A stretch of 64,000 nt of DNA. It comes from an uncultured bacterium. Lineage in GTDB: Bacteria > Bacillota > Clostridia > Oscillospirales > Acutalibacteraceae. Location: contig CAJMRT010000003.1 of the NCBI GenBank assembly GCA_905215855.1, forward strand, positions 12,597 to 76,596. Reading direction: 5' to 3'. The notes under the pieces are model-generated. The model saw only the letters and a program-made list of their open reading frames with translations, made no database searches and was not told the origin of the DNA. Made by a program: the position numbers and the translations under genes. Below, piece by piece: positions 34,441 through 64,000 of this stretch (its first letter is position 1; the number at the start of each line of letters is the position of its first letter).

Positions 34441-34590
34441 GTAGGGGCGGAACCGTGTTCGCCCGTTCGTGTGCTTTGCACACGATTGAACGCAATGCGT
34501 TCAAATTTAAAACAATATTAATAATTATATTAAATTATTTTGATGAAACAGATAATCTCTTTAATGCGGGCGAACGAGGTTCGCCCCTAC
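34441..34590. repeat. MITE-like element bounded by inverted GC-rich hairpin repeats (GTAGGGGCGGAACCGTGTTCGCCC ... GGGCGAACGAGGTTCGCCCCTAC)
   Basis: ~150 bp. The terminal inverted repeats share GTAGGGGCG. Internal palindromes (gtgtgcTTTgcacac, ttgaacgcaatgcgttcaa). A homologous 149-bp copy is at 58165..58313 and a solo end at 44551..44572. Confidence 0.6.
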
Positions 34591-34644
34591 ATACATATAC
34601 TTTAATAAATTTTCCATTTTTCACTTTCAACTTTCAATTTGACA

Positions 34645-44550: not shown

Positions 44551-44572
44551 GGCGAACACGGTTCGCCCCTAC
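44551..44572. repeat. Solo copy of the GTAGGGGCGAACCGTGTTCGCC hairpin repeat (inverted orientation)
   Basis: 22/22 identity, as reverse complement, to 58165..58186. Confidence 0.6.
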
Positions 44573-44582
44573 AAATAAAACG

Positions 44583-45926
44583 CTAACTAACTTTTCTCTT
44601 TTTCAAATAATAACCAACACCGAATGCGTCAGCCAAGAACCAACCTATGGGGATGGAGAGCCATATTCCGATAACGCCGATTAGGGGTATTCCTGACAAA
44701 ACAAGTGACAGCAGAACTCTTGTGCCGAGTGAAATCACAGTCAGCATGACTGACATAAACGGCTTGTTTACGGCACGATAGTAGCCGTACAGCATAAATA
44801 AGATTCCTATACCGATGTAGCACGCACCCTCAATTCGCAGATACTGCGAGCCGATTTCAATTGTCTGCACATTTGAGCTGTCAACAAAAATGCTCATTAA
44901 AGCACCCGAAAGGCTGAAAACAATTACGCTGACAACTGCGCTGAAAATTGCAACGCTTATCACGGCTTGTTTTATTCCCGACTTTATTCGGTCAATTTTC
45001 CCAGCACCGAAGTTTTGTGCAACAAAAACCGAAAATGCGTTTCCGAAGTCCTGCAACGGCATATAGGCGATTGTGTCAATCTTTACGGCAACCGCAAAAG
45101 CCGCCATAACAACTGCGCCAAAGCTGTTGACAATTCCCTGAACAACGAGTATGCCGAAGTTCATAACCGACTGTTGCAGACAGGTGAAGCCCGACAGCGA
45201 CAAAATATTTTTGAATTTTGCTCTGTCAAAATGCAGATCGGATTTTCTCACCCTGTATTCGGGACAGGCAAAGAGGAAGTACAGCAAAAGTCCTACTCCC
45301 GAAATGTACTGTGAAATCACGGTTGCAACCGCCGCACCGACAATTCCCATATCGAGCGAAATCACAAAATACAGGTCAAGTCCGACATTAAGTACAACCG
45401 ACACCGCAAGGAAAACAAGCGGTAAAAACGAGTTGCCCACGGCACGCAAAAGATTTGATATGTAATTGTAAAGAAATGTGGCAAAAAATCCGATAAATAC
45501 CCATAAAAGGTATGATTTAATATCACCGACAATTTCGGGCGGAACGCACAAAAGCGTTATTATAGGATCTATAAAAATATAAATGAGCGCCGTTATCAAC
45601 AGCGTGAGCGAGCCTATAAAAACCGATGACATAAAGATTCCGCCACGGATCTCGTCATTTCGTTTTCGACCGAAAGCCATTGACACAAACGCACCCGTAC
45701 CGAGCGAAAGTCCGATTATAACCGAATTGAGAAAGGTCAAAAGTGTATATGACGAGCCGACTGCCGCAAGGGCATTGTCGCCAACATATTTTCCGACCAC
45801 CCATGTATCGGCAAGGTTGTAAAACTGCTGAAACACATTGCCGAGCATAAGCGGTACTGCAAAAGACCACAGGCCGCCTGTTATACTGCCTGTGGTCAAA
45901 TCTCTGTTTTTATTTAGTTTTATCAC
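44583..45926 (-). CDS. MATE-family multidrug/oligosaccharide efflux transporter
   Basis: 12 TM, 447 aa, N-terminal ...LMLGNVFQQFYNLADTWVVGKYVGDNALAAVG, typical of MatE. Confidence 0.8.
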   Translation of the reverse strand: MIKLNKNRDLTTGSITGGLWSFAVPLMLGNVFQQFYNLADTWVVGKYVGDNALAAVGSSYTLLTFLNSVIIGLSLGTGAFVSMAFGRKRNDEIRGGIFMSSVFIGSLTLLITALIYIFIDPIITLLCVPPEIVGDIKSYLLWVFIGFFATFLYNYISNLLRAVGNSFLPLVFLAVSVVLNVGLDLYFVISLDMGIVGAAVATVISQYISGVGLLLYFLFACPEYRVRKSDLHFDRAKFKNILSLSGFTCLQQSVMNFGILVVQGIVNSFGAVVMAAFAVAVKIDTIAYMPLQDFGNAFSVFVAQNFGAGKIDRIKSGIKQAVISVAIFSAVVSVIVFSLSGALMSIFVDSSNVQTIEIGSQYLRIEGACYIGIGILFMLYGYYRAVNKPFMSVMLTVISLGTRVLLSLVLSGIPLIGVIGIWLSIPIGWFLADAFGVGYYLKKRKVS

Positions 45927-52420: not shown

Positions 52421-52449
52421 TTGCATTTTGCGCGCTATCAATGTATAAT
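52421..52449 (+). promoter_or_regulatory. Sigma-A promoter (TTGCAT-17-TATAAT), divergent from mgtE
   Basis: -35 52421-52426, 17-nt spacer, -10 52444-52449. Followed by RBS aggag and ATG 52490. Confidence 0.5.
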
Positions 52450-52489
52450 TGGTACTGTAATAAAAACAAATGATAGGAGTTTGCCCATT

Positions 52490-53137
52490 ATGTCAGATAT
52501 GGTAAAAAAATATGTCCCTTATGCGGTGATAATTTTCGTTGTTTATATGCTTTTGCCGCTTGTTTTTCTTCCTGCGGCAATGCAGAAGTTCTCACCTATT
52601 GCCTATGATTGTGTGTTCCCCCTTACAGCAATCGGATGTGCGGCTCATTACTGTTCAAAGTACGGACTTGACTTTCTCTTTGCACTCATTGCACCGATTA
52701 TTTATCTTCCGAGTATGCTCATTTACAACGGCGGATTTTCTTCAAGCACACTTTCAACAAACCTTATTCTTCTCGTTGTTTATCTTGTTGCAGGAATCTT
52801 CGGACTTTTCCTCGGTGACCTTGCATTCGGTGACAAGCGCCGTCAGAAAGAAAAGGCTGAACAGGAAGAAACAGAGGAGATGCTTCTTGAGGCAAGACGC
52901 CGTGAGAAGAAAGAGCTTGAAACTATGACAAAATCAAGCAGAAAACCCGAAAGAAATCCTCACAAACAGGAACGCAAACCGTCAAAGCCTGCACGCAGAC
53001 CTGCTCCCGCACCGCAGAGAACAGTCAAAGACGATACCGATGACTTTGACTACGATAAGTACCTTTCTGACATCGACAGAAAGCAAGACCCGAACGAAAG
53101 CGAAATTGACGATATTCTCAACGAATACGGTCACTAA
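52490..53137 (+). CDS. Small membrane protein (4 TM) with a highly charged, basic/acidic C-terminal tail
   Basis: TM-rich N-terminal 130 aa. C-terminal tail RRQKEKAEQEETEE...RKPERNPHKQERKPSKPARRPAPAPQ...DDFDYDKYL. The start is re-placed at MSDMVKK. Confidence 0.4.
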   Translation: MSDMVKKYVPYAVIIFVVYMLLPLVFLPAAMQKFSPIAYDCVFPLTAIGCAAHYCSKYGLDFLFALIAPIIYLPSMLIYNGGFSSSTLSTNLILLVVYLVAGIFGLFLGDLAFGDKRRQKEKAEQEETEEMLLEARRREKKELETMTKSSRKPERNPHKQERKPSKPARRPAPAPQRTVKDDTDDFDYDKYLSDIDRKQDPNESEIDDILNEYGH

Positions 53138-53247: not shown

Positions 53248-54129
53248 TTAGCTGTATGCTTCCACAATATATTTCTGAACAAGTGTGGCGTCAAGAATAT
53301 TGATAACGCCGTCATTATTTACATCGGACACATATATGCCGAAGTCATCAAGTGCGGCAGCTCCGAGTATATATTTTTGAATCTCGGTAACATCCATAAT
53401 ATTAACCCACCAGTCGCCGTTTGCGTTGCCCATGGTCAGCTTATCAATATAGGTACCTGTTGTACCACCGCCACCGCCCGACGCTGTATCGGTTTCATAT
53501 CCATAGCTTGTGGCATAGACCGTATCATGTCCTAGCTTGCGGCTGAGGTAAAATTCAACATATCCGTCCTTGTTCGGAGCACAGGCTGTCATAAAGCCGC
53601 CGCTCTCAATTATGAGATATGAATAATAGGTAACCTTGCCGGAACGCTGAGTTTTGTAGTTGAACTCCCATTTGCCGTTGTAGCTGTCCCTCTTGGTAGT
53701 GCCTTTTTCCGAAAAGGTCTTAGGGTCGAGGTCATGGAGCTTTACTCTGACTTTTACATATTTTCCCGAAAGGTCTGTTCTGAACAGATTTCTGTATGAC
53801 GAACTTCCGCCGCCACCGCCGTTAGTTAAATAAATGACATTGTATTTATCGGTTTTTGAAAAGTTATAAGCTTTTACCTTGTTCACAAGCGGCACAAAAT
53901 CTATCTTTGTAAGTCCGCCTTTTTCTTTTCTGAATTCCGCATAAACACTGTCGTTGGAATCAAGATTAAATGCAGTTGCCCCAAGCTGACCGTCCGCAAG
54001 TGTAAAGGATTTTCCGACATCTGTAACAGCCTTAACCTTTACAGCTGAATTTGCCGTAACAACAGATGTTAATGCCAGCACACCGCAAAGTGCCGTTGCG
54101 GTAATTTTTTTGATAATATTTTTCTTCAT
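53248..54129 (-). CDS. Secreted dockerin-containing protein of unknown function (paralog 1 of 3)
   Basis: Signal peptide MKKNIIKKITATALCGVLALTSVVTANSA (start at internal Met with RBS AGGGAGAG). A Gly-rich GGGGG segment. C-terminal type-I dockerin duplicated Ca-binding segments GNANGDWWVNIMDVTEIQKYIL and DVNNDGVINILDATLVQKYIV. Confidence 0.7.
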   Translation of the reverse strand: MKKNIIKKITATALCGVLALTSVVTANSAVKVKAVTDVGKSFTLADGQLGATAFNLDSNDSVYAEFRKEKGGLTKIDFVPLVNKVKAYNFSKTDKYNVIYLTNGGGGGSSSYRNLFRTDLSGKYVKVRVKLHDLDPKTFSEKGTTKRDSYNGKWEFNYKTQRSGKVTYYSYLIIESGGFMTACAPNKDGYVEFYLSRKLGHDTVYATSYGYETDTASGGGGGTTGTYIDKLTMGNANGDWWVNIMDVTEIQKYILGAAALDDFGIYVSDVNNDGVINILDATLVQKYIVEAYS

Positions 54130-54209
54130 TGTTCTCTCCCTATAAATCAAGATTTATGATTTGTCGCTTACAATATATTTTTGAATAAGAGTTGCGTCAA
54201 CAACATTGA
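54080..54209. repeat. ~130-bp direct repeat (copy 1) spanning a dockerin-gene junction. Identical to 55019..55148.
   Basis: Exact string caccgcaaagtgccgttgcggtaatttttttgataatatttttcttcattgttctctccctataaatcaagatttatgatttgtcgcttacaatatatttttgaataagagttgcgtcaacaacattga in both places. Confidence 0.85.
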
Positions 54210-55068
54210 TTTTACCGTCATGGTTTACATCGCTGTTAAAAAGCTGAGTCTTGCCGAATTTTACAATACCTACAACATATTTCTGAACAGATGTTGCATC
54301 TACAACCGTAATGTTTCCGTCTGGATATGCATCACCGCAAGTCAGGCAGTTCAATTTGCCACCAATCGTTGTTTTACACTCTGCGCCGTTTTTAAGTCTG
54401 CAATATTTATAAGCCATAAGGCCCGTATCCTCGCCAAGCTGTCTTGAAATATAAAACTCCGCATAGCCGTTCTTATCAGGGACAAAAGATGTTACCGCAC
54501 CTCCGCTGACAAAATATGCGCCCGAGGTTGCATAGCAAGGTTTGCCGCTGCTGTCTGTACCGAAATCCTCATATGTAAAGTCAAAATTCTTGTATGTGCC
54601 ATCGCTGAGTTTTCCGGTCATTGTGCCATCATCATTAAAGCCATCAGGAAAATAGTCGGAGAGTTTAATCCTTATCTTAACATATTCTCCGCCTGTTGAA
54701 TCATAATTGAATTTCATACCCGTATCACCAAAATAACGATTATCCGCTGTTATCATATGGCGAGTAAATTCCTGATTTTTCGGGAGATTTACAAACTTCG
54801 GTGCATCAATACAGTCCTTAAACATCACGCTGTACTTTTGATAATCCGTTGATATGAACATTGCCCCGAAATTCTTTGCCGTATTTTCGGTATATCCCGT
54901 TGTTGTAACAAAAAGCTGATTGTTTGAAATTTTCTGCGTTGTACCTGTAACTTCAAAGTCCTTGCGATCTTCATACTCGCTTACCGCACCTGTCGTAAGA
55001 ACCGAACCGACGGTAAGCACACCGCAAAGTGCCGTTGCGGTAATTTTTTTGATAATATTTTTCTTCAT
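54154..55068 (-). CDS. Secreted dockerin-containing protein of unknown function (paralog 2 of 3)
   Basis: Same signal peptide. Shared core (FVPDKNGYAEFYISRQLGEDTG). Dockerin repeats DGNITVVDATSVQKYVV and DVNHDGKINVVDATLIQKYIV. Confidence 0.7.
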   Translation of the reverse strand: MKKNIIKKITATALCGVLTVGSVLTTGAVSEYEDRKDFEVTGTTQKISNNQLFVTTTGYTENTAKNFGAMFISTDYQKYSVMFKDCIDAPKFVNLPKNQEFTRHMITADNRYFGDTGMKFNYDSTGGEYVKIRIKLSDYFPDGFNDDGTMTGKLSDGTYKNFDFTYEDFGTDSSGKPCYATSGAYFVSGGAVTSFVPDKNGYAEFYISRQLGEDTGLMAYKYCRLKNGAECKTTIGGKLNCLTCGDAYPDGNITVVDATSVQKYVVGIVKFGKTQLFNSDVNHDGKINVVDATLIQKYIVSDKS

Positions 55069-55148
55069 TGTTCTCTCCCTATAAATCAAGATTTATGATT
55101 TGTCGCTTACAATATATTTTTGAATAAGAGTTGCGTCAACAACATTGA
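55019..55148. repeat. ~130-bp direct repeat (copy 2) spanning a dockerin-gene junction
   Basis: Identical to 54080..54209. A diverged third copy lies at ~55976..56030. Confidence 0.85.
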
Positions 55149-56010
55149 CAGCACCGTCCGAATTCACATCACCGTTAAAAAGCTGAAGCTTACTCAATTT
55201 ATTTTCATTTACAACATACTTTTGAATTGCGGTTGCATCAGATACGGAAACCATCTCGTCGTCGTCTGTATTGCCGCAGATAAAGTTACTCAGCAAAGCA
55301 CTTGTTACGCCTTCATCACCCAACACACCGTTTTTCAGTACGCTTTCACAGGTTATCATTAACTCTACATCATCACCGATATTTCTTGAAACATAGATTT
55401 CCGCATAACCGTTTTTATCGGGTACAAACGAAGTAATCGCTCCGCCGCTGTGTGCATACGCACCCGATGATTCGTACAACAGCATACCTCTGTTGTCCTT
55501 TCCGTAATCATAGTAATTATAATCGTAAGTTCTTAACACACCGTTGTTCAGCGGTGCTGTAAAAGTACCGTCAGAATTGAAATACCCATTAAAATCAGAC
55601 AGTTTCACTTTCACCTTGACATATTTTCCGCCTGTTGTGTCAAATGTATGACAGGCAAAACTATTTCCGAAACCGTAGTTGTATTCATTTGCCATAAATC
55701 TTGAAAACTTCCTACCCTTAGGCAGCTGTATATATCTCGGATATTTCTCACAGCTTTTAAACTTCAATTTAAATTCGTTTTCCTGTTCGTCCTTGAATAA
55801 AACGCCGTACAGTCTTGAGGTTTTGCTCGTGTAACCTGTAGTTGTTACGAACAGCTGATTATTATTTATCTGCTGTGTTTCGCCTGTAACCTCAAACCTC
55901 TCCTGAGATTTTTCGACACTTTTCGGGGCAGCACTTACAGCAAATGCCGAGCCTGCCGCAAGCACACCGCAAAGTGCCGTTGCGGTGATTTTTTTGATTA
56001 CATTTTTCAT
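55093..56010 (-). CDS. Secreted dockerin-containing protein of unknown function (paralog 3 of 3)
   Basis: Signal peptide MKNVIKKITATALCGVLAAGSAFA (RBS GGAGGG). Shared core (FVPDKNGYAEIYVSRNIGDD). Dockerin repeats DDDEMVSVSDATAIQKYVV and DVNSDGAVNVVDATLIQKYIV. Confidence 0.7.
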   Translation of the reverse strand: MKNVIKKITATALCGVLAAGSAFAVSAAPKSVEKSQERFEVTGETQQINNNQLFVTTTGYTSKTSRLYGVLFKDEQENEFKLKFKSCEKYPRYIQLPKGRKFSRFMANEYNYGFGNSFACHTFDTTGGKYVKVKVKLSDFNGYFNSDGTFTAPLNNGVLRTYDYNYYDYGKDNRGMLLYESSGAYAHSGGAITSFVPDKNGYAEIYVSRNIGDDVELMITCESVLKNGVLGDEGVTSALLSNFICGNTDDDEMVSVSDATAIQKYVVNENKLSKLQLFNGDVNSDGAVNVVDATLIQKYIVSDKS

Positions 56011-56251
56011 TGTTTTACCCTCCGTATTTGCAGACATTACCGCAAATTTGTTCATACTTGTTTGAGTTTATCAATATATTATCCTTAAGTCAATAGCCGC
56101 AAATAAAATTTGGCATATACGGCAATATATGCGTATTTTTCCCAATGTTAATTATTACAAATGACAGACAAAATACTCGGAAATTTCTGTTTTTAACACA
56201 TTAGTTTTTAACAAAAAAAACAGACTGTACCGTAATACAGTCTGCTGTAAA

Positions 56252-57061
56252 TTATGACGCACGCTCACAGATTACATAGTAACGGTCAAAACCACCGTTT
56301 CCGTCACTTATGCAGGTGAACATTGTGAGCAAATCTTTGCCATTTTTAATATAGCAATCTTCCGATTCATTTGGCTTATTCACCTTTGTTTCAACAACTT
56401 TGTAATCTATGGTGTCCCAATAATTTGTGATTGACACCTTATCGCCCATTTTCAGATTACGCAGATTATCAAAGAAAATTCTTCCGACATATCCCGTGTG
56501 ACCTGCAAGAACAGTGTTCGTATTATTGCCACCAATCGGCAATGAGGTTGCACTCATATGTGCCGCACCGTAACTCATATTAGCACTGTTAGCACCGAGA
56601 TAAATCGGCAGTCGCATACCGATTGTTTTGGCAGAAACATATCCGTAAATACCGTCACTTATGCCGTAGTTGCTGAGATTTATCGCAGCCTGAGAGTAAG
56701 TATCGTTGCGGAACAGTTCATACTGACTGCTTTCAAGCTTTTTATTGTAGGCAACGCTGTCCTTAAAAAGTCGGTCAAGGTCAACTTTAAACACAACAGG
56801 CTGTTTTGAAGTACGCTTGCCGTCCTTGTCAACCTTGTATCCCTCTTTGTCAACCTTTCCGTCCCTGACGGCTTCTTCAAAAGAGCCATCCTCAACCTCT
56901 TCAACACGAATATCAAAGCTATCGGCCTCACCGTTTGAAATTTGTGTTCCCACAAAATTTGATATGGGAGGAAATGCCACAAGACCTATTCCGACAACAA
57001 GCATAACGATTGCAACAACTGTCAGTATCTTTTTAAGCATCTGCATCACCGCCCGAATCAT
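56252..57061 (-). CDS. Class C (pilus-assembly type) sortase
   Basis: N-terminal TM. Catalytic His in TVLAGHTGYVG. TLxTC as LLTMFTCISD. Conserved Arg after it. The start is ambiguous (M1, M6 or M8); it overlaps the end of the upstream sortase gene. Confidence 0.65.
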   Translation of the reverse strand: MIRAVMQMLKKILTVVAIVMLVVGIGLVAFPPISNFVGTQISNGEADSFDIRVEEVEDGSFEEAVRDGKVDKEGYKVDKDGKRTSKQPVVFKVDLDRLFKDSVAYNKKLESSQYELFRNDTYSQAAINLSNYGISDGIYGYVSAKTIGMRLPIYLGANSANMSYGAAHMSATSLPIGGNNTNTVLAGHTGYVGRIFFDNLRNLKMGDKVSITNYWDTIDYKVVETKVNKPNESEDCYIKNGKDLLTMFTCISDGNGGFDRYYVICERAS

Positions 57062-57977
57062 CAGAATTTTCGTCAGCAGAATCAGCTTTTAACCTCTTTG
57101 CTCCGACCGATTTCTTCTTTTTGCGTTTAAGCAGGAAGATAACAACGAACACAACAAGTGCAACAAAGCCGACGATTATTCCGGCTGCAACTGCATACGG
57201 AATCTTGTATCCGAGGAAGAATATGTAACCATTATCAAATTTTGCAAGTGAAACACCTGTTTCAACATATTTTGTGTCATCGTATGCAACATGCTTGCCA
57301 CGCACAAGAAGTCTGTGCGTATTCACACCGTAAGGCGTACAGGTCAAAAGCGTTACAAGGTCCTCGCCGTCAACAATTCTAAGTGAGTTAATCTCTGACG
57401 GCAGAACAACCTCAATTTGATCAACCTCATATTTCAGCGTTCTGTCGAGAATATGAACATAAAATTCATCGCCTACTTTCATATCGGTGAGGTAATCGAA
57501 AAATGTTTCGCCCGGATAACCCGAATGTGCCGAAATTACCGCATGGGTACTTTTTCCGCCTACAGGAAGTGATGTATTTTGCAGATGACCTGCACCTTTT
57601 GAAAGAATTTCTTCGCTTGTACCGTGATAAATCGGCAGATAAACATTGATTTTCGGAATATCTATGTAACCGATAAGTCCGTCCTCGTCAACGCTGAGCG
57701 TGTGTTCATATCGCTCACCGATTTTCTGAAAAGCCTTTTCGTCAAACGGGTCGGTGATAATCATATTGTTTGACAGGCTGTTATTATACTTTGTCGCCTC
57801 TTCAAACATTTTCTGAGTTTTCTCACTCGGCATCTGAGCAACCTTGTTGGTATATTCCTTAACACTGCTTCGACTGACATAGTTATTGATTGCCGAACTG
57901 ACAAGAGGGTAACTCATTATGCCGATTCCTGCAACAAATATTAAAACTATAAGTAAAATTGCCAGCTTTCGTTTCAT
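57033..57977 (-). CDS. Class C sortase with an N-terminal signal/TM and a C-terminal TM anchor
   Basis: His in AVISAHSGYPG. TLxTC as LVTLLTCTPYG. Conserved RLLVRGK. C-terminal hydrophobic segment AVAAGIIVGFVALVVFVVIFLL plus KRKKKK, typical of class C sortases. The start is re-placed at MKRKLAIL (RBS aaggaaa). Confidence 0.7.
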   Translation of the reverse strand: MKRKLAILLIVLIFVAGIGIMSYPLVSSAINNYVSRSSVKEYTNKVAQMPSEKTQKMFEEATKYNNSLSNNMIITDPFDEKAFQKIGERYEHTLSVDEDGLIGYIDIPKINVYLPIYHGTSEEILSKGAGHLQNTSLPVGGKSTHAVISAHSGYPGETFFDYLTDMKVGDEFYVHILDRTLKYEVDQIEVVLPSEINSLRIVDGEDLVTLLTCTPYGVNTHRLLVRGKHVAYDDTKYVETGVSLAKFDNGYIFFLGYKIPYAVAAGIIVGFVALVVFVVIFLLKRKKKKSVGAKRLKADSADENSDDSGGDADA

Positions 57978-58074
57978 AAAATTTTCCTTTTCTGCGTGTT
58001 TTTGTTCCGTTATTATTATACTATATTTTGCCGTGCAGGGCAATATATCGACAGCACAGCGATTTGTGCGAACA

Positions 58075-58097
58075 GTAGGGGCGGTCATTGGCCGCCC
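58075..58097. repeat. GC-rich hairpin repeat GTAGGGGCGGTCATTGGCCGCCC (REP-like family member)
   Basis: Near-identical, as reverse complement, to 58291..58313 (gtaggggcgttcattggacgccc). Confidence 0.55.
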
Positions 58098-58164
58098 GCA
58101 AGTAAAGACATAAACATTGTGATAGAAATAAACTATATAAATATCACAAAATTACTGCTATTTT

Positions 58165-58313
58165 GTAGGGGCGAACCGTGTTCGCCCGTTCGTGTGCATT
58201 GCACACGATTGCACGCATTGCGTGCAAAATTGAATACACAATTTATGTTATATCAAAACCTATGTGTATGAACATAATATTTCATCAAGCGGGCGTCCAA
58301 TGAACGCCCCTAC
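58165..58313. repeat. MITE-like element, homolog of 34441..34590 (inverted GTAGGGGCG...CGCCCCTAC termini, 149 bp)
   Basis: The left 60 nt are ~90% identical to the 34441 copy, including the gtgtgcattgcacac and tgcacgcattgcgtgca palindromes. Sits in the pilin-sortase intergenic region. Confidence 0.6.
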
Positions 58314-58417
58314 AGATTATACACTGCTTTTATTGTATAAAAAGCTATGTGTATAAACATATAAATTCATCAAGCGGCGGATAATATCCGCATCTACGGC
58401 TCTTCTGTAAATAGAAC

Positions 58418-58439
58418 GGGGATGCGTTGCCGCATCCCC
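58418..58439 (-). promoter_or_regulatory. Stem-loop immediately 3' of the pilin gene and 5' of the sortase genes. Candidate intra-operon attenuator.
   Basis: ggggatgcg-ttgc-cgcatcccc perfect 9-bp GC-rich stem ~50 nt after the pilin stop, with no strong U-tract. Confidence 0.35.
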
Positions 58440-58487
58440 TGAAAATTACATATATCACAGATTTTAAGATAAAAGATATTCGATTAA

Positions 58488-59906
58488 TTATTTAGCTGCT
58501 TTCTTTCTCTTAAGAACAAAGAGGAGAACGCCTGCACAAGCGATAAGTGCTGCACCGCCAATATAGAACATCATTGTACCCATACCACCTGTTGAAGGAA
58601 CTGTTACAGGATAATCAGGAACTTCTACCTGATTTACTTCGCTTGGATTACCGTCAACTGTAACTGTGATAACACCTGTTGTGCTAATATCAACTGTGTA
58701 CTCAGAAGAGTTGAGGTTGTAACCTGCAGGAGCTTTTGTCTCCTTAACCTTGTATGTACCTGCACCAAGCTTTTCAAATGTAACATGACCGCTTTCGTCT
58801 GTTATCTTAGTGCCAATCACTTTGCCCTCTTTATTCTTCAGCTCAAATGTTGCATTGCCAAGACCTTTCTTGTCAGCTGTTGTGCCATCATACTTGAATA
58901 CAGGAAGGTCGAATGTGTAAACATTTACTGTTCCACCAGACTTTGAAGCCTGACCGTATGTGTTTGTGTATGTAAGACTGTCGCTGTTGCTGTTGTCTGT
59001 TGCAGTGTTGCCCGAAACAGCTGTATCCTTAAGAATTGCTGTAAGTGTTACAGTAACATTTGAACTTGCATAGAAGTTATTACTGCCTTCTTCACCTTCA
59101 GCTTTTTCAGCATTAGCAAGATAAGCTGATGTAAGAGAAATCTTAATATCTGACTGTGATGAAGCATCTACTGTGTAATCTGAAGTTGAAAGTTTAGTGT
59201 TGCCAACCATAACTTCTGTTACAGCAGGAGTGTCAAAGCTATCTGAAAGGTTATCGTGGATTGTATACTCGGTAAGCGGAACTTCCTTAGAACCTGTAAC
59301 TGAAGCTGTGAGCTTAAATGTTACAGTGTCGCCTGCAGAAGCAGTTGTGTGCTTAGAATCGATGTCGCCACCAACGATTTCCTTAGAAACTTTAACTTGA
59401 CCTATGTTAATCTTGAGTTCGATTGGAGCTTCTGCTGAACCCTGAGTTGTCTTTGTGCCCTCAGGAAGAGCAAAGAGAGCACCGCCCTTTTCCCTTACGC
59501 TTGTTTCAGCAGGCTGGCCTGTAACCTTAACATAGTAAACACCTGCATCATTTGTACCGAAGTTGTAAACATCTTCGTCAGAAGTAAATTCATGGTTACC
59601 CTTGCTGTCTGCATCTGTAAATGTTGCACTTTCACAAGCAGCGAGAAGAGCCTCACCGTCATTACCCTTTGCACTATTCCAAGTTGTAAGAGCTGTTTTA
59701 ACAGCGTCGCCGCCCTTAATGTCAGTATATTCGCCTGTTGTTGTGTTAATTTTTGCTACCTTATAAACATTTACTTTAAAGCCGTTCTTGCCCTTGATAA
59801 ATGCGTTATAAGTATAGCTTTCTGCTGCACTTGCTGAGAATGGAATCATGAGAGCGATCATCATTACTGCAAGAACAGCTGCAAAGATTTTCTTTGTAGT
59901 TTTCAT
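58488..59906 (-). CDS. Backbone (major) pilin subunit of a sortase-assembled pilus
   Basis: Signal peptide. E-box YKVKETKAPAGY (consensus YxLxETxAPxGY). CnaB/Ig-like Thr/Ser-rich beta domains. C-terminal sorting signal VPSTG plus hydrophobic segment plus KRKKAAK. Strong RBS aaaggagaaag. Confidence 0.7.
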   Translation of the reverse strand: MKTTKKIFAAVLAVMMIALMIPFSASAAESYTYNAFIKGKNGFKVNVYKVAKINTTTGEYTDIKGGDAVKTALTTWNSAKGNDGEALLAACESATFTDADSKGNHEFTSDEDVYNFGTNDAGVYYVKVTGQPAETSVREKGGALFALPEGTKTTQGSAEAPIELKINIGQVKVSKEIVGGDIDSKHTTASAGDTVTFKLTASVTGSKEVPLTEYTIHDNLSDSFDTPAVTEVMVGNTKLSTSDYTVDASSQSDIKISLTSAYLANAEKAEGEEGSNNFYASSNVTVTLTAILKDTAVSGNTATDNSNSDSLTYTNTYGQASKSGGTVNVYTFDLPVFKYDGTTADKKGLGNATFELKNKEGKVIGTKITDESGHVTFEKLGAGTYKVKETKAPAGYNLNSSEYTVDISTTGVITVTVDGNPSEVNQVEVPDYPVTVPSTGGMGTMMFYIGGAALIACAGVLLFVLKRKKAAK

Positions 59907-59990
59907 TTTAACTTTCTCCTTTGTGTTTGATTTAATATATGTAATTATATTCTAACCGAATGGTTAAACAAAGTTGAGGTGGCTGCATGG

Positions 59991-60016
59991 CGGACACCGG
60001 CTAATAACGGTGTCCG
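59991..60016 (-). promoter_or_regulatory. Perfect 9-bp stem-loop between the adhesin and pilin genes
   Basis: cggacaccg-gctaataa-cggtgtccg with no U-tract. Possible RNA processing or attenuation site. Confidence 0.3.
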
Positions 60017-60082
60017 TAGCAGTCAAAGAGGTTTTCTATGAAAGAAACAAATGATTTTAAATCATTGTCTTTGATAGTGAGT

Positions 60083-63000
60083 TTATTTTCTGTATCTTGT
60101 TCTGCGTTTTTTACGGCTGATTCTGTCATAGATTGTATAGCTCATAAGCAATGTGCCTGCAATGCCCACAACAGCAATACCGCCGATTACAAAACCGTTC
60201 ATACCCGCACCGCTTGCCTGTGGCATTGTAAGCGGATAGTTGTTTACTGTGCCTGCCTTGATATGATAAATCATCTTGCCGTCGCTGTCGGGAAGATACT
60301 TGAATCCGACACCGCCGATTGCAAATTCAGCCTCTTCGCCTGATTCACACTGCCGTGCATACGGAACAGTAAAGAAGTGCTTTTCCGTACTCAGGTTATA
60401 ACCCGGTGCTGCCTTTGTTTCAACAAAGCAGTAAAGCTGATGTTCGCTTGTATCATCTGTATCCTGTCCTTTGAAAATACGAAGATTTTCAAACTTCACA
60501 ATACCGTTGTTGTCAATTGTCTTTGCCTCAACAAGATTATCGGCAGTCAACTCATCAGTCGGTGTGTTGAGCTTGTAGAGTGAAAACTCAACCTGACCTG
60601 CCATATTCTTGAATGTTGTACCGTCTGAGCCTGCCTTTGAAATTTCAATAGAACCCTTGTGGTAGTTGACAAATTTTACATTATCCGCAGGATTTGCAAT
60701 TTCGTTTGTTTCGCTGACTGCATCCTGTGCTGTAGAATAATATTTGACGCTTGCTGTGTTTGGAGCAGTTGTTCTGTCAACTGAAACTACAGCATAATAC
60801 TTTGCAGTATCAAAAGTATATGTATCACCGCCGAGATTTTTCTCAGCAATCTGATAGTAGAACTTATCTACTGTAGCACTTGCATTAACACTTGCACCGC
60901 CGTTTGCCTCAACAGGCTCGGCAGCCTGTGCCTTTGCCTTTGCCAAAGACCTTGTGGTTAACGGAGCCGCTCCCCACGAGCCGCCTCCCTTATCCCATGC
61001 ACCGTCGGCAATTGTATAGCATCTGTTTGTATCTGTTGCTGAAGGAATATCGAGGTCATTTGTCTGATTCCATTTTGTATCCCAGCCGTTTGTTAAGTTG
61101 GTCGGATCCATTCTGCAGAATATAAGACCTTTCCAAGTACCTGACGGAATTTCAGCCTGATAATAGCCGTCGCCGTCATCATCTGTCATTGATACCCATT
61201 GCTCCTGCTTTGGACTTGTAGAATCATTAAAGAAATAAATTGCAAATCTTGCACTATCTGTTATCCAATTTGAATTTGGTTTCAAGTAAACTGTGTTCTG
61301 ATTTACAGGGGTTGTGGTCGGAGCTGCTGTTGTCGGCTGAACAGTTGGCTTTGCAGTTGTCGGAGCAACTGTAGGCTGATCTGTTACCGGCTGAGTTGTT
61401 GTAGGAGTGTCAACTCCTCTGTACTCATACTCGAGTGCATCAAATGTGATTTTATCGCCGAAGTTGTTCTTTGTCTGCAAGAGTTTTGACTCTGTAAAAG
61501 CAGAACCGCTCTTCTTCATTTCTGTAAGTGTAAACTCAAATGTGTTGACATCAGGTATTTCGCCGTCAAGCGTCTTTGCCGCACTGAGTGTTACATGAGC
61601 ATTTGATTTATCAATTTCTCTGTTTACAAATCTTGCAACAGCACCCGAATCATTAACTTTTCCTGTTTCGCCTGTCGAAGTTACTGTGTAATCTGAGTTT
61701 GCTTCCTCAACAATCTTATACTTTGTACCGACAGGGATATTTGGGAACACTGCTGTTTCTCCGCCCTTGAGAGCAAATGTGCCGTTACTTGCAACATACT
61801 CTGTTGAACCTATTGTATATTCAAGCGGATATTGCTTATAAGTTTTTCCACCGTCAAATGAAAGGTATACAGTAAAGTTATATTTTTCATTTGTAATAGG
61901 ATTGCCGTCTTTGTCAAAAGCTGCCTTTGTTACATTAAGGTCTGCAAGCTTAGGAGTGTTTACAAAATCCACTTTATAGTCTGTTGCGTGTTTTTCGTTT
62001 ACTTCATTCTTGAAGAGGAAGTTTGCCGACGTACCGCTTCCGTTTGCTTTCTGAATTCCGTTCTTAACATCTGTTACCGAATATGTTGATGATGAGTACT
62101 TTATAAATGAATTAGCCATATTCTCGGAAACTGTCAGCCAGTTGCCTACATTGGTAATGTTTGTGAATGAAGAACTGTTGCCGTCCTTCATTGCATAGGA
62201 ACCGTTAGCGTCTGAAGTTTTAGAAGATGTTGAACCGGTTTTATCTGTGTAAAGATATTCTTTATAGCTGAGAGCAGAATTACCGCTGTTTGCAGTGCCG
62301 TTGTTAACATTAGTAAATGTGAAAGTGTCAGCTGCTGAAACTGCATCTTTGATACCATCGTTCACATTAACTGTGTTTACAGTCTTTGTTGTTGTAAGTT
62401 TGTTATCAACAGGAGTGAACGAGAACTCAACCTGAAGGTTTGACTCAATAAGACCACGCTCCATATAGAACATCTGGAGTTTGTGAACAGTATTCTTTGT
62501 ACTGCCATTCATTACATCTGAAAGTGAGTAAACACTTGATGCACTTGTGACTGATTTTGAGTTAAGACCTGTTGCATATGTTGTTGAATTCTTTGCAAAG
62601 TTAAGTGTACATGATGCGTCCTTATGGTCACCGCCAAGGTCAACAACAAGTTTGCCGTCAATGTAAATCCACACATCATCGTCACCTGTGAATGTGAATG
62701 TTACCTCCTGATCGTCAATCTTACCGCCTTCGGGAACAGTAAAGTCAACTGACAATGCCATACCAAAACCGTAGTTAAGGTCATTTCTTACATCTTCACC
62801 TGTGTGGTTGATTGTGTTGTTGTTAAAAGGGAAGAAGCCGTAACCGCTTTTGCCTGAGTTAAACCACAGCTTACCGTCATGAATAGCCTTTGAAGTATCA
62901 CTGCCGCCATACATAAGTGTAAGTGAGTCACTTGTAACACCGTTTAAGTTGTTTGTGCTTGAGCCTGTGTTTGCGTTTTTAAGATAAATGCTGTTTACAG

Positions 63001-64000
63001 GATTTGCATGAGAACTTACTGTACTTGACTGATAGCTGTACTTTTTAGTATTACTGTCATATGTAAACGGAAGAGCCGCATTGACTTTCTTACCATACGA
63101 GCTGTTCTGACCTGAACCTGTTTTTGAAAGAAAGCTGTCACTAAAGAACGGTGCAGCCACTGTACCGCTGTTACCGTTCTTCATCATCATCAAGCTGCCG
63201 TCACTGCCAAGGTTTCTTGAAACAACACCCTGATACGACCACGACCATGACTTCGGTTCGGCAGACTTTGCCAGTTCGTTTGTATTATTTACATTGACAT
63301 CGGCTGTATTACTGTCATGCCAAACTGCCTTTGAGTTATTCGGTGCGGCATCATAACCGTACAGACTGCCCTTCTTTGCATCATATGTATCTTTTCTGCC
63401 TGTTTCAGATTCAGTACCTGTATTGAAGTTGCCGTAGTAAAGAGGTTTCTTTACATTGTTATCCTCATAATACTGACTGAGATAGCTGTTAAAATTATCA
63501 AACGGATACCATGTTGCGGAGTTACCGGCTGTTTCTACATTGCCCCACTGAGTGCTGAGTTCCTGATCATCGAGATAATCATAATACGAACACGAAGCAA
63601 GGTACATACTGTCAGGAAAACTGCTGTCAATCTTTGCGTCATATTCAAAGTTATCTTCAACAACGGTTTCGCTGTATTCGCTCCAAGTACCGTTGTTATA
63701 AATCATATTCGAAGATGAAGGAATTGTAATATCACCTATTTGGGCACCGTTGCCGTCACTAAAGATAATGTTCTCTGCATTTGCGTCAACTGTTATCTTA
63801 TAGACATTATGCTTAACATTCTGCACCTTGTCCATAGCGGTACCGGGCCAATTGCCTGAGTACTTAGTGGACGAAGTCCATGTATAAGCATACACACTTC
63901 CCCAACCGTTGGTATTCATATAGTACAGGGTTTTGCTTTCGGCAGCAGCAACCTTTCCTAAATTCATACCCGACACTGCACACACTGATAACATCATTGT
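60083..64000 (-). CDS. Very large (>1300 aa) cell-surface adhesin / candidate pilus tip or ancillary pilin. The 5' end lies beyond the window.
   Basis: E-box-like YCFVETKAAPGYNL. Pro/Thr linker TTQPVTDQPTVAPTTAKPTVQPTTAAPTTTP. Multiple Ig/CnaB-like beta domains. C-terminal ...YPLTMPQASGAG plus hydrophobic segment plus RKKRRTRYRK (non-canonical sorting signal). The frame is open to base 64000. Confidence 0.6.
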   Translation of the reverse strand, partial: TMMLSVCAVSGMNLGKVAAAESKTLYYMNTNGWGSVYAYTWTSSTKYSGNWPGTAMDKVQNVKHNVYKITVDANAENIIFSDGNGAQIGDITIPSSSNMIYNNGTWSEYSETVVEDNFEYDAKIDSSFPDSMYLASCSYYDYLDDQELSTQWGNVETAGNSATWYPFDNFNSYLSQYYEDNNVKKPLYYGNFNTGTESETGRKDTYDAKKGSLYGYDAAPNNSKAVWHDSNTADVNVNNTNELAKSAEPKSWSWSYQGVVSRNLGSDGSLMMMKNGNSGTVAAPFFSDSFLSKTGSGQNSSYGKKVNAALPFTYDSNTKKYSYQSSTVSSHANPVNSIYLKNANTGSSTNNLNGVTSDSLTLMYGGSDTSKAIHDGKLWFNSGKSGYGFFPFNNNTINHTGEDVRNDLNYGFGMALSVDFTVPEGGKIDDQEVTFTFTGDDDVWIYIDGKLVVDLGGDHKDASCTLNFAKNSTTYATGLNSKSVTSASSVYSLSDVMNGSTKNTVHKLQMFYMERGLIESNLQVEFSFTPVDNKLTTTKTVNTVNVNDGIKDAVSAADTFTFTNVNNGTANSGNSALSYKEYLYTDKTGSTSSKTSDANGSYAMKDGNSSSFTNITNVGNWLTVSENMANSFIKYSSSTYSVTDVKNGIQKANGSGTSANFLFKNEVNEKHATDYKVDFVNTPKLADLNVTKAAFDKDGNPITNEKYNFTVYLSFDGGKTYKQYPLEYTIGSTEYVASNGTFALKGGETAVFPNIPVGTKYKIVEEANSDYTVTSTGETGKVNDSGAVARFVNREIDKSNAHVTLSAAKTLDGEIPDVNTFEFTLTEMKKSGSAFTESKLLQTKNNFGDKITFDALEYEYRGVDTPTTTQPVTDQPTVAPTTAKPTVQPTTAAPTTTPVNQNTVYLKPNSNWITDSARFAIYFFNDSTSPKQEQWVSMTDDDGDGYYQAEIPSGTWKGLIFCRMDPTNLTNGWDTKWNQTNDLDIPSATDTNRCYTIADGAWDKGGGSWGAAPLTTRSLAKAKAQAAEPVEANGGASVNASATVDKFYYQIAEKNLGGDTYTFDTAKYYAVVSVDRTTAPNTASVKYYSTAQDAVSETNEIANPADNVKFVNYHKGSIEISKAGSDGTTFKNMAGQVEFSLYKLNTPTDELTADNLVEAKTIDNNGIVKFENLRIFKGQDTDDTSEHQLYCFVETKAAPGYNLSTEKHFFTVPYARQCESGEEAEFAIGGVGFKYLPDSDGKMIYHIKAGTVNNYPLTMPQASGAGMNGFVIGGIAVVGIAGTLLMSYTIYDRISRKKRRTRYRK

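Follow-up and report, generated by a model that had tools for sequence, protein, structure and literature searches.

In the backbone pilins SpaA, BcpA and RrgB, a linking lysine is followed by two isopeptide-stabilised domains. Ruminococcus bromii is a keystone resistant-starch degrader of the human colon and, to our knowledge, the cohesin-dockerin amylosome and the Sas proteins are so far the only explanation for how it attaches to starch. Here we describe a locus of four genes at positions 56252-64000 of a 64,000-nucleotide stretch of contig CAJMRT010000003.1 (hereafter the window), derived from an uncultured bacterium of the Acutalibacteraceae, which encodes an adhesin, a pilin and two sortases. 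The locus is best read as a two-component SpaA-type sortase pilus of an R. bromii-group bacterium, the tip of which would be a modular, starch-aimed glycan adhesin, and we put the probability of this reading at about 0.62. Both the polymerisation of the pilin and the binding of starch are predictions made from sequence.

Four open reading frames (ORFs) occupy the locus, all on the minus strand and all intact. Their order, adhesin, pilin, sortase and sortase, in which a first-pass annotation had recognised a pilus island, is borne out by the reading frames themselves and by the matches of two products to curated families. The 314-residue product of srtC (57033-57977) scores 290.4 bits against the NCBIfam class C sortase model NF033745 (cut-off 160) and covers the whole model, and the 472-residue backbone, or major, pilin (58488-59906) scores 105.1 bits against the SpaH/EbpB major-pilin model NF033902 (cut-off 95), 72.5 bits against PF17802 (SpaA) and 18.3 bits against TIGR01167 (cut-off 15.9). 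The E-box and the VPSTG signal that had been noticed in the pilin are found at residues 385-396 (YKVKETKAPAGY; 58719-58754, minus strand) and 436-440 (VPSTG(G); 58587-58601), respectively, the latter being followed by a hydrophobic stretch and the basic tail KRKKAAK. A human-gut contig encodes an identical pilin, and proteins of R. bromii and Ruminococcus sp. in NCBI that are 86-97% identical to the window pilin are named "SpaH/EbpB family LPXTG-anchored major pilin" or "isopeptide-forming domain-containing fimbrial protein".

The conservation pattern of the pilin likely reflects a similar construction. Among 52 homologues from related loci, with a mean identity of 35% to the window pilin, the sole conserved charged or amide residues are K165, kept in 96%, and K175, D218, N307, K338 and E389, kept in 100%. 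K165 lies ten residues ahead of K175, the middle-domain set K175/D218/N307 comes next, and the set K338/E389 belongs to the C-terminal CnaB domain, whose last strand supplies D431 (Asn in the homologues) beside it; the E-box glutamate E389 aligns with the E-boxes of solved CnaB domains. K175/D218/N307 and K338/E389 are therefore candidate isopeptide-bond residue sets, and a search of the pilin for a pilin-motif lysine and isopeptide residues thus returned conserved candidates of both kinds. The spacing of K165 and K175 resembles that of K190 and K199 in SpaA, and K165 is marked as a candidate linking lysine only. In a Foldseek search with a low-confidence AlphaFold2 model of the pilin, built on an alignment of 27 sequences that are 86-97% identical, the best 35 matches are all sortase-pilus pilins, with T6 at the top (E = 1.6e-11) and Streptococcus sanguinis PilA/PilB, EbpB, CppA, RrgB, SpaD, SpaA, BcpA and FimP among them.

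The two sortases differ considerably from each other. The srtC product has an N-terminal membrane segment, a TDPFD lid (57741-57755), a C-terminal membrane anchor and the catalytic His in SAHSG, Cys in TLLTCTPY and Arg in HRLLVRG, and across 46 orthologues the lid, SAH, TLLTCTPY, HRLLVRG and the C-terminal membrane segment are all kept, which makes it, as judged from these features, a bona fide class C, pilin-polymerising sortase. Its start is placed at the ATG at 57977 (MKRKLAIL), which has an AGGA ribosome-binding site ahead and replaces an initially listed start at 58088. The second sortase (262 residues, 56252-57040) most likely starts at 57040, overlapping srtC by 8 nucleotides, as called on a second metagenome contig (L001). 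Its best NCBIfam match is likewise class C, although at 138.8 bits it remains under the cut-off of 160, as do nine of the ten orthologues sampled (125-152 bits). The sequence contains no DP[FWY] lid, nor is there a conserved equivalent across 46 orthologues, and a C-terminal membrane anchor is also absent, while the catalytic His (AGHTG), Cys (LLTMFTC, MFTCIS) and Arg (FDRYYV) are kept in those 46. The nearest solved structures are class C sortases such as 3o0p (E = 6e-25). Given the sub-threshold score, the missing lid and anchor and these solved relatives, the enzyme appears to represent a distinct class-C-derived subfamily and not a second canonical SrtC. Of the two class C sortases that the first-pass annotation had listed, srtC thus stands, with its score of 290 against 160 and its lid, whereas the lidless second enzyme does not qualify in the strict sense; class C is nevertheless its best-scoring class, and neither sortase falls in class A or B.

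The related loci provide a clue to the role of the lidless enzyme. A search of representative proteins with the head region of the adhesin gave 148 clusters at E <= 1e-30, many of which end in xPx[T/A/S][S/A/G]G.G and not in LPXTG, and from genomes of Ruminococcus, Acutalibacteraceae and Oscillospiraceae, one per species, a set of 80 loci was compiled which includes metagenome-assembled genomes (MAGs) from rumen (RUG series), goat, roe deer, reindeer, sheep and horse faeces. In 41 of the 80, representing 41 species-level genomes, the adhesin, the pilin, a lid-bearing sortase and a lidless sortase occur together as in the window, and there the adhesin signal is always non-canonical while the pilin signal is a canonical [LVIM]PxTGG.GT. 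The adhesin signal is canonical in six loci, none of which has the lidless sortase, and three loci have a non-canonical signal without that sortase, one of them (L085) being an extraction error; the association gives a Fisher p of 5e-6, not corrected for phylogeny. The PQASG signal of the window adhesin, which had been described as unusual, is indeed not an LPXTG motif, but it follows a family-wide consensus and is not a one-off. As the lidless sortase is paired with the non-canonical tip signals, the sub-hypothesis we prefer is that it may be a tip-specific enzyme for the non-LPXTG signal.

The strongest competitor, which we still consider rather unlikely, is that the second sortase is not tip-specific and instead terminates or anchors the fibre by handing it to the wall, or acts as a redundant polymerase. 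Housekeeping-type sortases, with their open active site, typically lack a lid, the co-occurrence statistic carries the phylogenetic caveat given above, and two-sortase pilus islands with overlapping specificities are known from streptococci. Tip specificity is favoured over these roles by the presence of the lidless enzyme alongside non-LPXTG tip signals in 41 of 41 loci whose pilins are canonical, by two loci (L029 and L037) in which a different odd tip signal, LPxSG or LPxAG followed by basic residues (K/R-K-G), goes with a different second sortase, and by a separate SrtB-family sortase, encoded elsewhere in the genome of R. bromii L2-63, which could do the anchoring. The adhesins of L029 and L037 belong to a sub-branch ending in FDLP[AQK][SA]G[RLKT]KG that also comprises the representatives P0247, P0258, P0260, P0330 and P0381; in these two loci, the ones of the sub-branch in which sortases can be seen, the second sortase is lid-bearing and matches either window sortase with about the same score. 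Two further observations concern the same set of loci. In L010-L012, which represent the closest other species (uncultured Ruminococcus sp. and Clostridiales MAGs with an adhesin identity of 58-59%), the pair of sortase genes precedes those for adhesin and pilin instead of following them, so that the module has been rearranged yet kept as a unit. Some of the pilus loci are adjoined by Ser/Thr/Asp-rich surface proteins with SPKTGD-type ends (L047:8965-10785, L048:17266-18837, L051:9768-11087 and L088:6023-7813), and this end represents a third type of sorting signal, one that is presumably recognised by a housekeeping sortase.

The adhesin gene (60083-64000, minus strand) is truncated by the end of the window. 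The listed ORF spans 60083-63997 and the codon preceding its first ATG is not a stop, so the gene extends beyond the window, with the first 22 codons, which belong to the signal peptide, lying outside. The full-length protein of 1326 residues is present on L001, an otherwise identical human-gut metagenome contig, where residues 23-1326 match the window copy with no mismatches. The first-pass annotation had described an adhesin of more than 1300 residues with a PQASGAG-type end, and the protein does terminate in ...LTMPQASGAG, a hydrophobic stretch and the tail RKKRRTRYRK (MPQASG-AG sorting signal, 60086-60226). Pfam recognises CBM26, PA14, DUF7601 and SpaA domains in it and NCBIfam a fibro-slime domain, and the overall order is signal peptide, CBM26, a poorly modelled region, PA14/fibro-slime, a stalk of Spy0128-like and isopeptide-type domains, and the sorting signal.

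The N-terminal module (63725-63925; residues 25-91 of the window ORF, the numbering used below unless stated) matches PF16738 with 57.6 bits against a cut-off of 28.1 over positions 2-69 of the 70 in the model. Although a phmmer search of the PDB sequences with the full adhesin returned nothing meaningful, a profile built from the CBM26 modules of the family matches the solved CBM26 of R. bromii Amy16 (E = 6.5e-45), Amy10, Amy4 and Sas6 and also the solved module of Eubacterium rectale Amy13K, and the module has both the CBM25/26 beta-sandwich fold and the aromatic platform. The module is a CBM26 and, going by its solved relatives, is predicted to bind starch. Next, the core of the head (62414-62776, residues 408-528) is a PA14/fibro-slime lectin-like domain, which scores 51.9 bits against the fibro-slime model (cut-off 45), agrees with the PA14 thresholds and fold, and sits inside the family-defining head at roughly residues 100-530.

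The stalk of the adhesin likewise appears to be of the isopeptide type, as an alignment of 45 homologues reveals three invariant Lys/Glu/Asn sets. The first, K691, E764 and N792 (K713/E786/N814 in the full-length protein), belongs to the first stalk domain, DUF7601 (61619-61942, residues 686-793; PF24547, 56 bits). The second, K808, E1052 and N1111, brackets a cassette inserted in a loop of the second stalk domain, and the C-terminal CnaB/SpaA-type domain (60362-60655; PF17802, 24.1 bits on the isolated segment) has an invariant K1121 and the E-box-like FVETKAAPGY with E1193 (K1143/E1215 in the full-length protein). The cassette (60962-61414), which consists of a Pro/Thr linker and a CBM-like module of about 110 residues, is variable among alleles, being present in those of 1326 residues and missing from those of 1193. 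Its module (60962-61297) scores 18.7 bits against PF16738 (E = 0.0019), under the cut-off of 28.1, and shares 50% identity with the module that ends the multi-CBM26 protein P0386; a BLASTP comparison of the cassette with the stalk CBM26 of P0243 found no similarity, so that we do not class it as CBM26. The equivalent point of the stalk is occupied in other species by a cassette-type module (L013, L014, L016) or by one to two canonical CBM26 modules.

The tip gene also varies strongly between strains. At least two types of adhesin occupy the same site in R. bromii-type loci, the window type of 1193 or 1326 residues and another of about 1480-1500 residues, which is the type found in L2-63. The mature proteins of the two types are only 15-50% identical per 60-residue block (window 60083-64000 versus L007:5364-9812), whereas the flanks are conserved at the nucleotide level, with 96.6% identity in secA, 93.3% in the upstream spacer and 92.7% in the pilin gene. 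The tip-adhesin gene is, on this comparison, a hypervariable island between conserved flanks. A diverse-profile protein search was dominated by the second R. bromii adhesin allele, which exposed the dimorphism and deepened the alignment little. Outside a 133-residue indel, the window adhesin is 84% identical to a "starch-binding protein [Ruminococcus bromii]" in NCBI. A scan of species-representative genomes found no adhesin more than 59% identical to that of the window, whereas metagenome proteins with 82-98% identity number in the thousands; the search pattern may not have fitted this allele, the representatives may have the other one, or masking may be involved. The locus is accordingly assigned to the R. 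bromii group by the names of matching proteins, by the identical metagenome contig and by its synteny with L2-63.

As to the ligand, the CBM26 and PA14 domains, which the first-pass annotation had missed in leaving the choice between substrate and mucus open, point to starch as the probable target. An improbable alternative is a pilus whose main ligand is a host or microbial glycan, such as mucin or the polysaccharide of a partner cell, bound via the PA14 head, with CBM26 as an accessory. It draws on the invariance of the PA14/fibro-slime head in a family in which CBM26 occurs in only 24 of about 66 adhesins, on the binding of monosaccharides or GlcNAc (N-acetylglucosamine) by the PA14 domains of the structural neighbours in adhesins, and on the deep within-species divergence of the head alleles, which resembles that of adhesins under host or phage pressure. 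Several points favour the starch reading over it: R. bromii specialises in starch, the closest counterparts of the N-terminal module are the CBM26s of the organism's own amylases, the relatives gained CBM26 independently at three distinct insertion points, sometimes in tandem, and the window allele has a second CBM-like cassette in common with multi-CBM26 proteins.

If the pilus reading is right, both precursors would be exported by the Sec system and held in the membrane by their C-terminal anchors. A sortase would cut the adhesin signal at MPQA|SG or nearby and join the adhesin to K165 of a pilin, after which the class C sortase would add pilins head to tail by linking the threonine of VPST to K165 of the next subunit. 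The finished fibre would then be transferred to the peptidoglycan, either via the SrtB-family sortase encoded elsewhere or via the second sortase. Such a fibre would carry CBM26, PA14 and the cassette to a distance of tens to hundreds of nanometres beyond the wall, where they could catch starch granules or alpha-glucan chains, and the pilus may work alongside the cohesin-dockerin amylosome.

Several points weigh against this model. The fibres, the pilin ladders and the binding of starch are predicted from the genes. K165, the candidate linking lysine, stands in the context IELK and not in the YPK of the classical WxxxVxVYPK pilin motif, and the AlphaFold2 model of the pilin is poor (pLDDT, the predicted local distance difference test, 56; pTM, the predicted template modelling score, 0.36) and served for the fold search only. 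The association between sortase and signal is confounded by shared ancestry. At least 14 related adhesins have the same module without CBM26, and with PA14 and not CBM26 as the family-wide constant, starch may be one ligand among several. The mass-spectrometric signal of the L2-63 adhesin described below is weak, the pilin was not found among the proteins listed from the same supplementary table (PMC9112005), and a 2025 cryo-electron tomography study of R. bromii (PMC12663171) makes no mention of pili or of this locus. Very improbable, finally, is the absence of any polymerisation, in which case the two sortases would attach single pilin and adhesin molecules to the wall and a short surface layer would result: the lack of reported fibres in R. 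bromii electron microscopy or cryo-electron tomography, the position of the candidate lysine outside a YPKN context and the known sortase anchoring of the R. bromii scaffoldins Sca2 and Sca5 would fit it, but a lid-bearing class C sortase at 290 bits is a hallmark of pilin polymerases, the pilin passes the curated major-pilin model, K165 is 96% conserved where SpaA-type pilins have the linking lysine, the gene order is kept in 41 genomes and the structural neighbours of the pilin model are all polymerising pilins.

Some published data bear on the expression of the locus. The adhesin orthologue of strain L2-63, L2-63_00713, was detected by mass spectrometry in washes of the cell surface with phosphate-buffered saline and EDTA (ethylenediaminetetraacetic acid), with 2-8 peptide-spectrum matches (PMC9112005 supplement). 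Cryo-electron tomography of R. bromii revealed "string-like protrusions" that run from the wall to the dense amylosome layer and reach out towards starch (PMC12663171), which we regard as a lead only. In Bifidobacterium, a 2026 study reports pilins up-regulated on resistant starch and gives no mechanism (PMC13271388). Pili or this locus are mentioned neither in Ze 2015 (PMC4611034) and Mukhopadhya 2017 (PMC5814915) nor in Cerqueira 2022 on Sas20 (PMC9112005), and searches of the literature outside subscription-only papers found no description of sortase pili in R. bromii and none of a CBM26- or starch-binding-tipped pilus. The earlier remark that such pili are not described thus holds for the searchable literature, although homologues already go by the names "major pilin" and "starch-binding protein" in the automatic annotation of NCBI. 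A bolder proposal would take these as undescribed "glycan-harpoon" pili of R. bromii and many gut and rumen Oscillospirales, with a swappable-cassette tip, a dedicated lidless tip sortase and a capture of starch independent of the amylosome; we advance it tentatively, with the odds somewhat against it as a whole.

The intergenic regions contain several structures that might influence the expression of the operon. Both of the stem-loops pointed out by the first-pass annotation are real, one at 59991-60016 between the adhesin and pilin genes (minus strand, -22.9 kcal/mol, z = -4.35) and a GC-rich, terminator-like hairpin at 58418-58439 just 3' of the pilin stop (minus strand, -22.5 kcal/mol, z = -4.18), and in neither case did any of 200 shuffles fold as stably. 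Only the latter has a U-rich tail: its 9-bp stem (7 G-C) is followed by GUUCUAUUUA and passes the terminator-scan rule, and since the U-tract is interrupted, partial termination is plausible. The stem at 59991-60016 has no U-tract, is followed by GCCAUGCAGCC and is absent from the terminator-scan list. Of 38 related loci, 37 have an equally strong hairpin after the pilin gene, the mean best 40-nucleotide energy there being -20.5 kcal/mol versus -9.9 within the pilin coding sequence, whereas the stem-loop after the adhesin gene is kept only in R. bromii-type loci, the corresponding spacers of other species being short and weakly structured. Upstream of srtC lies a promoter-like site, TTGCCC-17-TATAAT (58015-58043, minus strand), with 10 of 12 matches in a consensus scan, which is a weak kind of evidence. 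A reasonable reading is that partial termination after the pilin gene, together with a separate weak sortase promoter, would keep pilin transcripts above sortase transcripts. The earlier idea that the stem-loops tune stoichiometry accordingly gains comparative support for the post-pilin hairpin and none for the one after the adhesin gene. The operon is closed by an intrinsic-terminator-like site (56219-56246, minus strand), in which a stem of 12 bp precedes TTTTTTGTTA. Scanning 55900-64000 against Rfam gave no match at E <= 1, so the intergenic structures do not belong to a known RNA family.

The 511-nucleotide spacer between the pilin gene and srtC also contains a palindromic element of about 240 nucleotides (58075-58313, no strand assigned) with 25-nucleotide inverted repeats (58075-58099 and 58289-58313) that are 92% complementary, and the region folds with a z of -9.7. 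Related copies are found in the window at 34441-34623 and 44551-44605. Other R. bromii-type loci have the element at the same position, with about 95% conservation, and no empty site was found, as every such locus examined contains it. It persists there even where the adhesins are completely different, which indicates that it is old at the site and rules out a recent, operon-disrupting insertion. The first-pass annotation's MITE-like (miniature inverted-repeat transposable element) insertion is thus a palindromic element with inverted repeats, but a fixed one and not recent, and a REP-like (repetitive extragenic palindromic) element fits equally well. Dispersed palindromic repeats of REP/MITE-like character, with GTAGGGGCG...CGCCCCTAC hairpins, occur in several intergenic regions of this genome group, and in L007 copies of the family are located at about 339, 16960 and 19965.

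In long R. bromii-type contigs the genes surrounding the locus follow a fixed order, namely FtsW, PBP (penicillin-binding protein) and SecA, then adhesin, pilin, srtC and the second sortase, then three to four dockerin genes, then MgtE and MTHFR, and the window has the same arrangement. In strain L2-63 the gene that follows secA (L2-63_00712) is L2-63_00713, which encodes a 1495-residue "fibro-slime domain" protein. The dockerin triplet said to lie beside the pilus locus is present as three genes at window 53248-56055. A role for the triplet as part of the pilus system was considered and set aside, as only adjacency in R. bromii-type loci was found. The dockerin genes are tandem paralogues encoding proteins of about 300 residues, and their copy number differs among strains, with three in the window, L007 and L009 and four in L008 (L008:13894-17735); the N-terminal domains of about 240 residues match no Pfam family. 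Between the dockerin genes and mgtE, a plus-strand ORF at window 52421-53137 encodes a 238-residue protein with several hydrophobic segments, a Lys/Glu/Arg-rich tail and no Pfam match, and a 213-residue gene is found at the equivalent spot in L007-L009.

A CBM26-tipped covalent fibre, if true, would represent a second, longer-range device for starch capture apart from the amylosome. The device is conserved in the species and its tip gene differs greatly from one strain to the next, so it might be one source of the differences among strains in how they use starch and colonise. In 41 genomes a lidless sortase goes together with a non-LPXTG signal; this pairing offers a testable rule for telling tip from shaft subunits, and the enzyme and its signal might also serve protein engineering as a new orthogonal sortase/tag pair. 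The occurrence of CBM26-bearing tips in rumen, horse and goat genomes suggests that the design is widespread among starch-using Oscillospirales.

Compared with the described systems, the locus is closest to the SpaA-type pili, such as Corynebacterium diphtheriae SpaABC, Bacillus cereus BcpA-BcpB, Streptococcus pneumoniae RrgABC, Lactobacillus rhamnosus SpaCBA and Clostridium perfringens CppA. As in those systems, the tip adhesin and the backbone pilin are encoded in one operon with a class C sortase, the pilin combines an E-box and an LPXTG-like signal with a CnaB domain at its C-terminus and has a conserved lysine ahead of the middle domain, and the stalk domains have Lys/Glu(Asp)/Asn sets. 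The design, like that of the B. cereus pilus, comprises two subunits, a tip and a shaft, with no basal pilin. Unlike in these pili, the window tip has a CBM26 and a PA14/fibro-slime head in place of a vWA or collagen-binding domain and an xPx[T/A/S][S/A/G]G signal in place of LPXTG, the second sortase is lidless and under the class C cut-off, the candidate linking lysine lies outside a YPKN motif, and the host is a non-pathogenic starch specialist.

With the R. bromii amylosome and Sas proteins (Sca2/Sca5, Sas6, Sas20) the pilus has in common the group of organisms, the presumed ligand and the CBM26 family, and it would share covalent, sortase-dependent wall attachment with the scaffoldins Sca2 and Sca5. 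However, the pilus proteins contain neither cohesin nor dockerin, and their assembly would proceed by covalent polymerisation and not by calcium-dependent cohesin-dockerin binding. The tip further resembles the PA14/GLEYA lectin adhesins, that is, the Marinomonas and Marinobacter RTX adhesins and yeast Epa, Flo and Cea1, and the TIGR02148 fibro-slime proteins in having a beta-sandwich with GDDDxW...DLGG placed distally on a long stalk, although in the window the domain is on the tip of a sortase pilus and the surrounding 300 residues are modelled at low confidence. The type IV pili of Ruminococcus albus and Ruminococcus flavefaciens, implicated in cellulose adhesion, are likewise fibres that attach Ruminococcus to an insoluble polysaccharide, but they consist of pilins, an ATPase and a prepilin peptidase, whereas the window system uses sortase transpeptidation and has no sequence relationship to them. 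What appears to be new with respect to all of these is the predicted starch-binding tip of CBM26, CBM-like cassette and PA14 in a keystone degrader of resistant starch, the coupling, throughout the family, of a non-LPXTG tip signal to a class-C-like sortase that lacks the lid and scores under the cut-off, and the strong allelic divergence of the tip gene.

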